Origin: a virus
Taxonomy: Duplodnaviria; Heunggongvirae; Uroviricota; Caudoviricetes
Length of the DNA stretch: 34,679 nucleotides
Virus record (IMG/VR): IMGVR_UViG_2695420676_000013
Coordinates: 1-34,679 of that record
Strand: one strand, 5' to 3'
Each line of letters starts with the position of its first letter. Within the stretch, counting starts at the first letter, position 1. Made by a program: the position numbers. Positions 3,001-6,000 of this stretch are shown here, one piece after another.

Positions 3001-6000
3001 GATTCTGCAAAAACATTTGTTCAGGAGACTCTGAAAGATACCTGGGAGTCTGCTGACGAGTGGTTTGTTCACTAATAAACACGTAAAATCGGTAACGGCT
3101 GGAAATCATTCAATACTCGCACTATCGAAAGTTCACCAGCCAACCGCAGCACGTCCTGCATACGTCGTGTCTGCGGTTTTTCTTTTTTGCTTACATTGTG
3201 TCTGGTTCTTCCGGCCACTCAATATCAGGTGCAGTTGATGTATCAACACGGTTCAACAATACCCGATATTTATTCCATGCCTCCAGCAACGATCTTTCTT
3301 CCTCCGTTGCGATTTCCAGATCTACAGCATCCTGCAGTGGCGCAATATACTCACTGAATTCCTGGATGTAGAACTGTGTGGTGACGGTCTTCCAGCCATT
3401 CGGCTCCTGCTGTATCGAAGCATACCAGGCTATTTCAATATCGCTATGCTGCGGCAGCATTTAACCCCTTGTAATTCATCGCCATAATTGATTTAATTCA
3501 CAAATAAAACTATAACATGGTGAAATTAATGAAAAAAAACACAGATGATGGGGCTAAAATTTACACACCACTTACCCTAAAGCTTTATGACTGGTGGGTT
3601 TTGGGAGTATCAAATCGGCTTGCATGGGGATGTCCTACAAAGGAACACCTTCTTCCACACTTTCTGGAACATTTAGGTAACAACCATCTGGATATTGGTG
3701 TTGGAACTGGGTTTTACCTTACTCACGTACCTGAGAGTAGTCTGATATCTTTAATGGATTTGAACGAAGCTAGCCTGAACGCGGCATCTACAAGGGCTGG
3801 GGAATCAAAAATTAAACATAAAATTAGCCATGATGTTTTTGAACCTTATCCCGCGGCGTTACATGGTCAATTTGATTCCATTTCCATGTTTTACCTTCTT
3901 CACTGCCTGCCTGGAAATATATCTACAAAAAGCTGTGTAATACGCAATGCGGCGCAGGCCTTAACTGACGATGGAACTCTATACGGAGCCACAATTCTTG
4001 GCGATGGAGTTGTGCACAATAGCTTCGGTCAAAAACTGATGCGCATTTACAATCAGAAAGGCATCTTTTCAAACACAAAAGATTCCGAAGAAGGCTTAAC
4101 ACATATACTCTCAGAGCATTTCGAGAATGTTAAAACCAAGGTTCAAGGTACTGTAGTAATGTTTTCCGCTTCAGGGAAAAAATAGCATCCAACCGCAGCA
4201 CGTTCTTGCTTAAGACGTGATGCGGCATAATCCCAATGATTACTCCCTGACAGGGTTCGTAGGCCACTCAATATCAGGTGCAGTTGATGTATCAACACGG
4301 TTCAGCAACACCCGATACTTCTTCCAGGCTTCCAGCAATGAGGTTTCTTCCTCCGTTGCGATTTCCAGATCTACAGCATCCTGAAGTGGCGCTATATGCT
4401 CACTGGCTACCTGCATCAGGTTGTTTTTTGTTTCTTCCGCCTCCCGGATCCGGAACAGTTTTTCTGCTTCTGTATCTTTCACCCAGGCTGTGCCGTTCCA
4501 CTTCTGAAACTCCCCTTCCGGCGATAACCAGGTAACATTTTCCGGTAACGGACCGAGTTCAGAAATAAATAACGCGTCGCCGGAAGCCACGTCATAAACC
4601 GTTTTACCCCGATGGTCTTCAAAGAGATGCCACGATGACTCATCACTGTTGAAAACAGCCACAAAGCCAGCCGGAATATCTGGCGGTGCAATATCGGTAC
4701 TGTTTGCAGGCAGACCTGTATGAGGCGGAATATATGCGTCACCTTCACCAATAAATTCATTAGTTCCGGCCAGCAGATTATAAATTTTTATGGTCCGTGG
4801 TTGTTCACTCATTCTGAATGCCATTATGCAAGCCTCACAATATAGTTAAATGCGATGTTTTTGACGGTGTTTTCCGCGTTACCAGCAGCGTTAACGGTGA
4901 TGGTGTGTCCATGTGAACCAATCGCAACGGAGTGCGCATGAGCACCAATTGGAACAGAGTGCGCATGGTTACCTGTAGTGCTTGTGGCACCAGACCAGGT
5001 TCTGGAAGCGTTAAAGTTTACAGGAACACCATAAGTAAATTGAGAGCCCGTAAATCCATGGGCTGGCGCAGAGCCACCCAGTGTAAATGCTCCACTTGCT
5101 GTATAGAAATTACCGCTATCACTTCTGAAGTAACCGAGAGTACCGGTAATTTCCATAGTGCCTCGGCTGTGGTTATGGTCACCAGTGGCATTTGAAGACT
5201 TAGTACCATAATCAAACGACGACGTGGTTTTCGTCCCCAAATCCGTACTGGATGCACTGGCGCTGTGGGTGTGCGATTTAATGCCGTCCTGTTCCTGAGA
5301 TAATACGGCTCGACCACTGGCAGGTTTGCCCTTAATCGTCCAGCCACGCATATCAGGGATCACGCCTGACGGATAAGAAGGCAACAGAAATAGACGATTA
5401 GTGTTTTATATTCAAAAGGTTAATAGCAAATTTGGCATGCTTTTTACTGTCGAGTAAACTGCATGCCTCTATCCATAAAATCAAACAGTTGCAATCTAAT
5501 TTTGGAGAACGTTTTTTCTTCACCCTTTTAGCAAATCGCTATAAAAAACAACAAATGGTATAAAAATGAACAATCCTAATCCATGCATGACGTATGGCGC
5601 CTGTTGTGCATTTTTCCGCGTCTCTTTTTACCAGAGCAAAACCAATGATACTGACCTAGTCGTCTCCCAGAGACTTATGCCTGTATAGCACACCTCAAAT
5701 AATCTGGGATCTCATTTCGTAGTTTTACAATATCAATATCCGGCTCGATATGTTTCTGGTAAAACTTGTCTGCAAGCAAGTTTGCTATGCAATCTGCCGT
5801 ACGATTTTTTACATCCCGGCTCATACTATCACAAAGAGTATCTATTTTCTTGCCAAAAGAAGCATTCCCCATTATCACATGATTAATAGAACTTTGTGCT
5901 GCCTTAACATCAAGAGTTAGTTGATATCTCTGGCTCACAAGAGAAAAGACCCTTTGCCTCTCTTCAGTGGAAATTTTTGCATTTTTTTGAAAACAGTAAT

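Follow-up and report, generated by a model that had tools for sequence, protein, structure and literature searches.

The ybcY–tfaX cassette of a lambda-like Escherichia coli prophage and the direct repeats of the tfa 3′ end that bracket it

We analysed the virus record IMGVR_UViG_2695420676_000013 over positions 1 to 34,679; this whole stretch of 34,679 nt is called the window below, and all coordinates are window positions. The window represents a chromosome segment of Escherichia coli type, in which a lambda-like prophage occupies the dusA site. Between the DinI-like gene and the tail fibre assembly gene (tfa) of this prophage lies the ybcY–tfaX cassette, which consists of a methyltransferase gene and a divergently oriented chimeric gene ending in the same way as tfa. 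Taken as a whole, the region is very probably a further copy of the lambda-like E. coli ybcY–tfaX cassette that was moved by homologous recombination. The arrangement is already known and the mechanism is an ordinary one; nothing here is new, because the same arrangement is annotated as tfaD–ybcY–tfaX in E. coli K-12. The genes are already named in K-12, and database records of isolated phages contain the same protein, so the case carries little weight as a discovery. It is, however, a clean and small example of accessory-gene exchange among lambdoid phages, in which natural recombinants mark the crossover points and the partial duplication of the end of a conserved structural gene supplies homology arms in the form of direct repeats. 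In addition, few genes carried by E. coli prophages are as widespread as ybcY, which was found in 71% of the complete genomes, and its substrate is a real gap in annotation.

An earlier note, made from the sequence of the window alone, had called a 222-residue methyltransferase dependent on S-adenosylmethionine (SAM) and a divergent Tfa C-domain gene, and both gene calls were borne out. The first is an open reading frame (ORF) of 222 codons at 3517–4185 on the plus strand; its product matches the Pfam families Methyltransf_12, 23, 25 and 11 of class I SAM-dependent methyltransferases and corresponds to phrog_2132 over positions 1–218 of 218 (E 8e-157). By tblastn, 15 phage records encode YbcY at 99–100% identity, and in 14 the match spans the full length. 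All 15 were lambdoid Escherichia phages, including ev243, 2G7b and PhiR26_1, and some of the records name the protein ‘YbcY’. At the nucleotide level ybcY of the window was 99.5% identical to ybcY of K-12. The DLP12 prophage of K-12 has the order tfaD (b0561), ybcY (b0562, a pseudogene), tfaX (b0563), appY and ompT, and the window has the same order and orientation, with ybcY between tfa and tfaX and antisense to the tail operon. Since the gene order is that of K-12, ybcY is 99.5% identical and residues 1–61 of TfaX are identical, the sequence comparison identifies the region as the ybcY–tfaX cassette of the tfaD–ybcY–tfaX type. The spacer that carries the putative promoter differs from that of DLP12 by one substitution and has the same hexamers, and the 155-bp tfa/tfaX repeat is also the same. 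The two loci differ in that tfaX of the window reaches a full Tfa-type C-terminus followed by the hairpin and borders on DinI and the integrase at dusA, whereas tfaX of DLP12 adjoins appY–ompT at the site argU. Furthermore, ybcY is intact in the window, where the neighbouring stf gene is a truncated relic.

The translation start of ybcY is probably the ATG at 3529, which gives a protein of 218 residues. All 42 homologues begin at M5 of the 222-codon ORF, which is this ATG, and it is the likelier start because no gap separates the −10 element from the ATG at 3517. From this start the gene opens with ATG and a tract of eight adenines (3529–3540). The lesion that makes ybcY a pseudogene in K-12 is a loss of 2 nt at the same ATG/A8 tract, which suggests that the site is prone to slippage. 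Among the phages and prophages compared (loci L002–L007 and L018) ybcY was 99.5–100% identical in nucleotide sequence, whereas the adjacent tfa and tfaX were 91–98% identical. The higher identity of ybcY suggests either a recent spread of the cassette core or an unusually strong constraint; the ratio of nonsynonymous to synonymous substitution rates in ybcY was uninformative, with 0–3 substitutions between copies.

The divergent gene, tfaX, is an ORF of 89 codons at 3191–3460 on the minus strand, and its product matches phrog_2341 over positions 1–86 of 88 (E 6e-60). The earlier note had called it chimeric, and both parts of the chimera found their match. Residues 31–86 are the conserved C-terminus of Tfa (its last ∼56 residues) and match the Pfam family Caudo_TAP (PF02413) over profile positions 75–130 of 131 alone, which is not a complete domain. 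Residues 1–37 match the N-terminus of phrog_3893 (E 5.7e-8), and by BLASTP the N-terminus of TfaX was 39% identical over 36 residues (E 8e-8) to HK225_029, a full-length phrog_3893 member of 99 residues encoded beside DinI in phage HK225. The profile and BLASTP matches thus point to a phrog_3893-type gene as the donor of the TfaX N-terminus. The members of phrog_3893 are small proteins (∼80–100 residues) encoded divergently beside DinI in HK225-like phages. In phage Eeyore the phrog_3893 stretch overlaps a minus-strand coding sequence annotated as DinI (2501–2611 of locus L022; in HK225 the stretch is at 3001–3300 of locus L021), and in Erwinia phage 59 it bears the RefSeq label ‘DNA polymerase V’; both annotations look doubtful.

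In contrast to its 5′ part, the 3′ end of tfaX varied from one context to another. K-12, PhiR68_2 and Kati have a nonsense codon at position 62, giving a product of 61 residues; 2G7b has a frameshift, and in ev243 and PhiR26_1 an unrelated tail of 26 residues yields a protein of 101 residues. The complete Tfa-type end was present in the window (89 residues) and at locus L018, where the NCBI Prokaryotic Genome Annotation Pipeline (PGAP) calls tfaX an incomplete pseudogene. We read tfaX, on the basis of these comparisons, as an apparent recombination scar rather than a working chaperone.

A repeat search and a register-by-register comparison both detected a direct repeat whose two copies start 1049 bp apart. 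Copy 1 (3213–3367, 155 bp) is the 3′ part of tfaX and copy 2 (4262–4416, 155 bp) is the 3′ end of tfa. They are identical at 139 of the 155 positions (90%) and share exact runs of 43 bp (3213–3255) and 40 bp (3295–3334). Repeated 12-mers in the segment 2001–6000 numbered 65 compared with a mean of 0.5 over 50 shuffles, far above chance. A shorter block of 21 bp, which is the left arm of a hairpin after the tfa-type stop codon, occurs at 3137–3157 and again at 4186–4206; its copies agree at 19 of the 21 positions and are likewise offset by 1049 bp, in register with the core. The 55 bp separating the short block from the core are 35% identical between the copies; they hold the closing codons of two allelic forms of the Tfa C-terminus (…EEPDTM and …TNPVRE) and the diverged right arm of the hairpin. 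The repeats that the earlier note had placed at 3140–3356 and 4189–4405, with about 90% identity judged by eye, are therefore real, but the span as given is 77% identical because these 55 bp are unrelated, and the core is shorter and interrupted. Neither does copy 1 flank the chimeric gene from outside, as had been supposed, for it makes up the 3′ two-thirds of that gene (3191–3460, minus strand).

Each hairpin arm belongs to a predicted structure. The first (3142–3190, plus strand) is a hairpin at 3142–3178 followed by a U-rich tract, UUUUUCUUUUUU, with a predicted RNA folding energy of −19 kcal/mol (z −3.4). This intrinsic-terminator-like element lies 3′ of DinI, back-to-back with the end of tfaX, and resembles a DinI terminator; a simple terminator scan missed it because the stem has mismatches. 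The second hairpin (4193–4225) lies between the convergent ybcY and tfa genes, folds with −17.2 kcal/mol on the plus strand and −21.8 kcal/mol on the minus strand (z around −2.9) and is a possible bidirectional terminator.

To what extent the cassette recurs as a unit was apparent from complete E. coli genomes. The unique core (3461–4239) was present in 3838 of 5426 genomes (71%) at 4947 places, all with at least 95% identity; the ybcY-to-tfa junction was found in 2354 genomes, and at least 872 genomes continue, like the window, past the breakpoint of the DLP12-type tfaX. At all ten loci inspected ybcY was accompanied by the 5′ part of tfaX and both outer flanks varied, the neighbours being DinI, appY–ompT, lactone hydrolase–ompT, tfa, a 120-bp tfa relic or ynaE–pin. 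On the tfaX side the homology breaks at 3214 (DLP12, Kati, PhiR68_2) or at 3236 (ev243, 2G7b, PhiR26_1). On the other side it breaks at 4219, within the hairpin and with ynaE–pin beyond it, at 4359, with the 120-bp tfa relic, or deeper in tfa and stf.

Alleles without the cassette were found at three prophage sites, dusA, yecD and DLP12/appY. At dusA, locus L017 has the integrase, DinI, tfa and stf in order with the cassette absent. Its sequence is of the copy 1 and flank type up to 3255 and of the copy 2 type from 3256, the switch lying inside the 43-bp identical run, and the tfa fragment of the O111 locus (L001) shows the same pattern. At yecD one locus (L018) has the cassette and another (L019) lacks it, and the module junction of the latter falls at the 21-bp hairpin arm. 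For the DLP12/appY locus we searched with the 322-bp product of a simulated recombination between the repeats and required a single full-length match; a longer simulated recombinant of 1.2 kb was uninformative as a query, because two pieces of cassette-bearing alleles got joined. The search revealed nine genomes in which tfa is joined directly to the downstream flank of tfaX and ybcY is absent. Two of these loci (L023 and L024) were confirmed to have stf–tfa–appY–ompT in order, ybcY being absent. In them tfaD-type sequence gives way to tfaX-type sequence at points ∼20 bp apart within the repeat, so at least two events must have occurred.

These junctions, located in the repeat or at the hairpin arm and with differing crossover points, agree with the proposal of the earlier note that recombination took place at conserved tfa 3′ ends. 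The further suggestion of an excisable unit stands in part, as passive homologous recombination between the repeats; no dedicated recombinase, inverted terminal repeat or target duplication accompanies the cassette. No recombinase ORF was found between 3137 and 4416, and the sole pair of inverted repeats in 2000–6000 is an unrelated 17-mer in stf. A transposon or other self-mobile element (insertion sequence, integron cassette or site-specific excision) was rejected on the grounds that the repeats are direct and a recombinase is lacking. An invertible tail-fibre segment of the Gin/Cin/Pin type was likewise rejected, as the repeats are direct and no invertase gene adjoins them in the window. 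The positions of the junctions support general homologous recombination at conserved gene ends, the ordinary mosaicism of lambdoid phages, as the likely mechanism.

The cassette also resembles a ‘moron’, an autonomous accessory gene of lambdoid phages. The G+C content of ybcY (0.38–0.44, ∼0.40) departs from that of the neighbouring tfa (0.49–0.51), and the gene is present in some relatives and absent from others at the dusA, yecD and appY sites. The AT-rich spacer of 68 bp between the divergent tfaX and ybcY genes (3461–3528) contains a sigma-70-like promoter sequence with TTGATT at 3488–3493 and TATAAC at 3511–3516, separated by 17 bp; a promoter scan also found TTAACC-16-CATAAT at 3461–3488. 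For the ybcY/tfaX spacer of K-12, a table based on systematic evolution of ligands by exponential enrichment (SELEX; Shimada et al., PMC3946193) lists the same hexamers as a constitutive RpoD promoter of ybcY, along with an H-NS site, and a divergent RpoD promoter is listed there for K-12 tfaX too.

In the explanation that we propose, ybcY would be an autonomous unit of this kind, of low G+C content, transcribed from a sigma-70 promoter of its own within the AT-rich spacer that H-NS binds, and ending in a hairpin 3′ of the stop codon. It is oriented antisense to the late tail operon and comes directly behind tfa. In this view tfaX arose by an old rearrangement that joined ∼35 codons from the start of a phrog_3893-type gene to the final ∼55 codons of tfa. 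Because of this fusion, two directly oriented tfa 3′ ends would bracket the cassette, with the same hairpin arm after each. As the tfa 3′ end and its hairpin are common to many lambdoid phages, they could serve as homology arms. General homologous recombination would then carry the cassette into other prophages by a double crossover, and a crossover between the two direct copies would occasionally delete it, with no need for a dedicated recombinase.

Next we considered what YbcY may do. The protein has the Rossmann-like fold, the glycine-rich SAM motif I and the acidic residue at the end of strand 2 that are characteristic of class I methyltransferases, and its AlphaFold2 model has a mean predicted local distance difference test score (pLDDT) of 90. 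The top Foldseek matches were a bacterial phosphatidylethanolamine N-methyltransferase, which ranked first, juvenile-hormone acid methyltransferase (JHAMT), phosphoethanolamine methyltransferases (PMT) and polyketide C-methyltransferases (E 1e-11 to 1e-9, template modelling score 0.55–0.65, identity 13–21%). PmtA (8ys9), JHAMT (7ec0) and Plasmodium PMT (3uj7) share the Rossmann-type class I fold with YbcY. The fold search that had been proposed for the 222-residue protein thus gave small-molecule and lipid methyltransferases as its neighbours. The search of BFVD returned nothing specific, the sequence search of the PDB gave just weak matches to JHAMT and UbiG, and the NCBIfam scan produced sub-threshold matches to CpaM and RquA (17 bits against cut-offs of 175–180). 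The YbcY family comprises 2296 detected members in Enterobacterales as well as Aeromonas and Shewanella, and 54 residues are invariant in an alignment of 43 homologues. In Salmonella, Enterobacter and Yersinia the homologues, at 56–68% identity, stand alone on the chromosome, and inspection of their genomic context revealed no conserved partner gene beside them. The literature search found no functional study of ybcY, tfaX or methyltransferase morons beside tfa; what it yielded for ybcY was the SELEX promoter table and a negative result for Hha toxicity with a mutant of the K-12 pseudogene, nothing functional.

From the fold neighbours and the chromosomal relatives we infer the function of YbcY. 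That it acts in the cytoplasm and methylates a small molecule or lipid-like metabolite, having come from a lone enterobacterial chromosomal gene family and being expressed in the lysogen as a conversion gene, seems to us about evenly balanced between right and wrong. A more specific version, in which YbcY is a lysogenic-conversion enzyme that would methylate a lipid of the host envelope or another metabolite, is a speculation to which we give very little credence. If it were true, methylation of an envelope lipid could change phage adsorption, membrane properties or host fitness; it would explain why a near-invariant ybcY is kept beside receptor-binding genes in ∼70% of E. coli genomes, and the duplicated tfa 3′ ends would be portable homology arms that keep the gene in circulation.

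Several points weigh against the explanation as a whole. The promoter evidence comes from K-12, whose ybcY is a pseudogene preceded by an H-NS-bound spacer, and the hexamers in the window are putative, being those of the K-12 SELEX site. The hairpin at 4193–4225, which follows the ybcY stop codon, lacks a U-tract when read on the strand of ybcY, and the consensus scan did not report it as a terminator. The adjoining stf gene is truncated in the window, and the tail-fibre context is therefore a relic. The structural matches of YbcY are flat, with 13–21% identity, and include the tRNA methyltransferases CmoA, Trm9 and METTL6; judging from these models the substrate might also be an RNA or a protein. 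Finally, no strictly isogenic pair was found among the cassette-bearing and cassette-free alleles compared, and the cassette-free alleles could be ancestral and not deletion products. The flanks of these alleles are 94–99% identical rather than isogenic, and for this reason the comparison does not polarise the events.

If the cassette-free alleles were indeed ancestral, the cassette would enter by double crossover alone and the repeats would never mediate its loss. The orders DinI–tfa and tfa–appY are plausible as primary architectures of phages, and the flanks, as just described, leave room for such a history. Against this stands the appY locus, where alleles with the cassette are very common and those without it rare (the nine genomes), which favours sporadic deletion; the cassette-free forms there are clean chimeras of tfaD-type and tfaX-type sequence with at least two crossover points inside the repeat. 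The exact runs of 43 and 40 bp are also longer than the ∼25 bp that, as is generally known, are usually needed for RecA-dependent exchange. We therefore regard a history without loss as unlikely, if still worth keeping in mind; the direction of each individual event is an inference. Another reading would make ybcY and tfaX a functional two-gene module, with TfaX a working mini-protein (an adaptor or regulator built on the Tfa C-domain) selected together with the methyltransferase. The 5′ half of tfaX always occurs with ybcY and is 98–100% conserved, the 89-residue form has a PHROG of its own and clusters of hundreds of members, and the divergent RpoD promoter listed for K-12 tfaX would suit such a gene. 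This conservation can nevertheless be explained by hitch-hiking with the promoter region of ybcY, while the 3′ end varies with context (61 residues, frameshifted, 101 or 89 residues), dozens of length variants of TfaX are present in the database and tfaX of L018 is the incomplete pseudogene of the PGAP annotation; a co-selected module is thus improbable.

YbcY could, alternatively, be a nucleic-acid methyltransferase with which the phage evades restriction or exerts epigenetic control. Such a role is frequent among phage methyltransferases, and tRNA and mRNA-cap methyltransferases are among the structural neighbours of YbcY. The best structural matches, however, act on small molecules or lipids, close homologues outside phages are lone chromosomal genes, and ybcY occupies a moron position and not the early region. 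The earlier note had remarked that the protein lacks obvious DNA-methyltransferase motifs, and our scans agree: a DNA methyltransferase of the N6A/N4C or C5 type was rejected, as no DNA-methylase family of Pfam matched at E ≤0.01 and neither a (D/N/S)PP(Y/F/W) motif such as DPPY/NPPY nor PCQ/ENV occurs in the 222 residues. A defence system was rejected too, PADLOC having given an insignificant match to mad2 alone (E 0.0033, 14 bits). A role in nucleic-acid modification is accordingly quite improbable, and a copy of the known cassette moved by homologous recombination remains our preferred explanation of the region.

Similar arrangements are found in isolated phages. In ev243, 2G7b (Nesevirus), PhiR26_1, PhiR68_2 and Kati the side tail fibre genes are followed downstream by ybcY together with tfaX, and the YbcY proteins are 99–100% identical to that of the window; ev243 and 2G7b have just the 120-bp tfa relic beside ybcY, and in Kati and PhiR68_2 ynaE–pin lies between ybcY and tfa. 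Like the morons of lambdoid phages, the cassette has an autonomous accessory gene of deviant G+C content in the late region with presence/absence polymorphism, and, as in lambdoid mosaic exchange, its junctions fall in short conserved stretches where genes adjoin (Juhala et al. 2000 and Cumby et al. 2012, both cited after bioRxiv 10.1101/2024.10.15.618418). What sets it apart from these morons is that its homology arms stem from a partial duplication at the 3′ end of tfa, a structural gene, so that the cassette lies between direct repeats. The invertible segments G of Mu, C of P1 and P of e14, served by Gin, Cin and Pin, also have duplicated tail-fibre or tfa sequence beside fibre genes, and a pin invertase is nearby in Kati and PhiR68_2. 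The repeats of the cassette are direct and not inverted, however, and neither an invertase nor an alternative C-terminus of the fibre is present in this part of the window.

The host flank of the prophage consists of pspG and then dusA (542–1579, dusA on the minus strand). The prophage adjoins the 5′ end of dusA, and its integrase (1668–2765, plus strand) is a dusA-type tyrosine integrase. The DinI-like gene (2827–3075, plus strand; Pfam DinI, E 1.2e-19) forms the integrase-side flank of the cassette, and a DinI-like family protein is annotated at the syntenic loci L001, L017 and L018. On the other side lies the full-length tfa gene (4240–4824, minus strand; 194 residues), which matches Caudo_TAP over positions 1–130 of 131 (E 5.5e-45) and phrog_105. 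It is followed by a C-terminal fragment of the side tail fibre gene stf (4824–5384, minus strand) that matches phrog_295 over positions 631–794 of 794 (E 3e-83); the 5′ side of stf is cut off by an effector island and the ORF has no continuation upstream. Within this fragment (4902–4955) tandem 27-nt units code for His-rich repeats (…GSHGHT…/…GAHAHS…), a pattern that occurs in the C-termini of side tail fibres.

The closest complete genomes were those of O111:H8 strains, whose flanks are ∼98% identical to those of the window. Between DinI and espM2 these strains have just a 153-bp fragment of tfa, and the homology between the O111 prophage and the window picks up again only at 5566. The O111:H8 strain 8E and strain 01G17CRGN001 (L017) have the DinI flank and an integrase with one and the same protein accession; the two strains and the window, with its flank ∼98% identical, carry quite different cargo downstream. 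Beyond the effector island, with its espM2-like, NleG-like DUF1076 and espW genes, follow the tail, head and terminase genes. The type III effector genes at 6448–8844, namely an NleG-like DUF1076 gene (6448–7098), espW (7177–8235) and a partial DUF1076 gene, are syntenic with the O111:H8 dusA prophage and sit between the truncated stf relic and the tail fibre genes of the prophage itself (8948–10538). The espM2 homologue (5672–6262, minus strand) encodes a protein 85% identical to EspM2 of O111:H8, and an in-frame stop at codon 85 divides it into two ORFs (5675–5938 and 6011–6265); it is probably a pseudogene.

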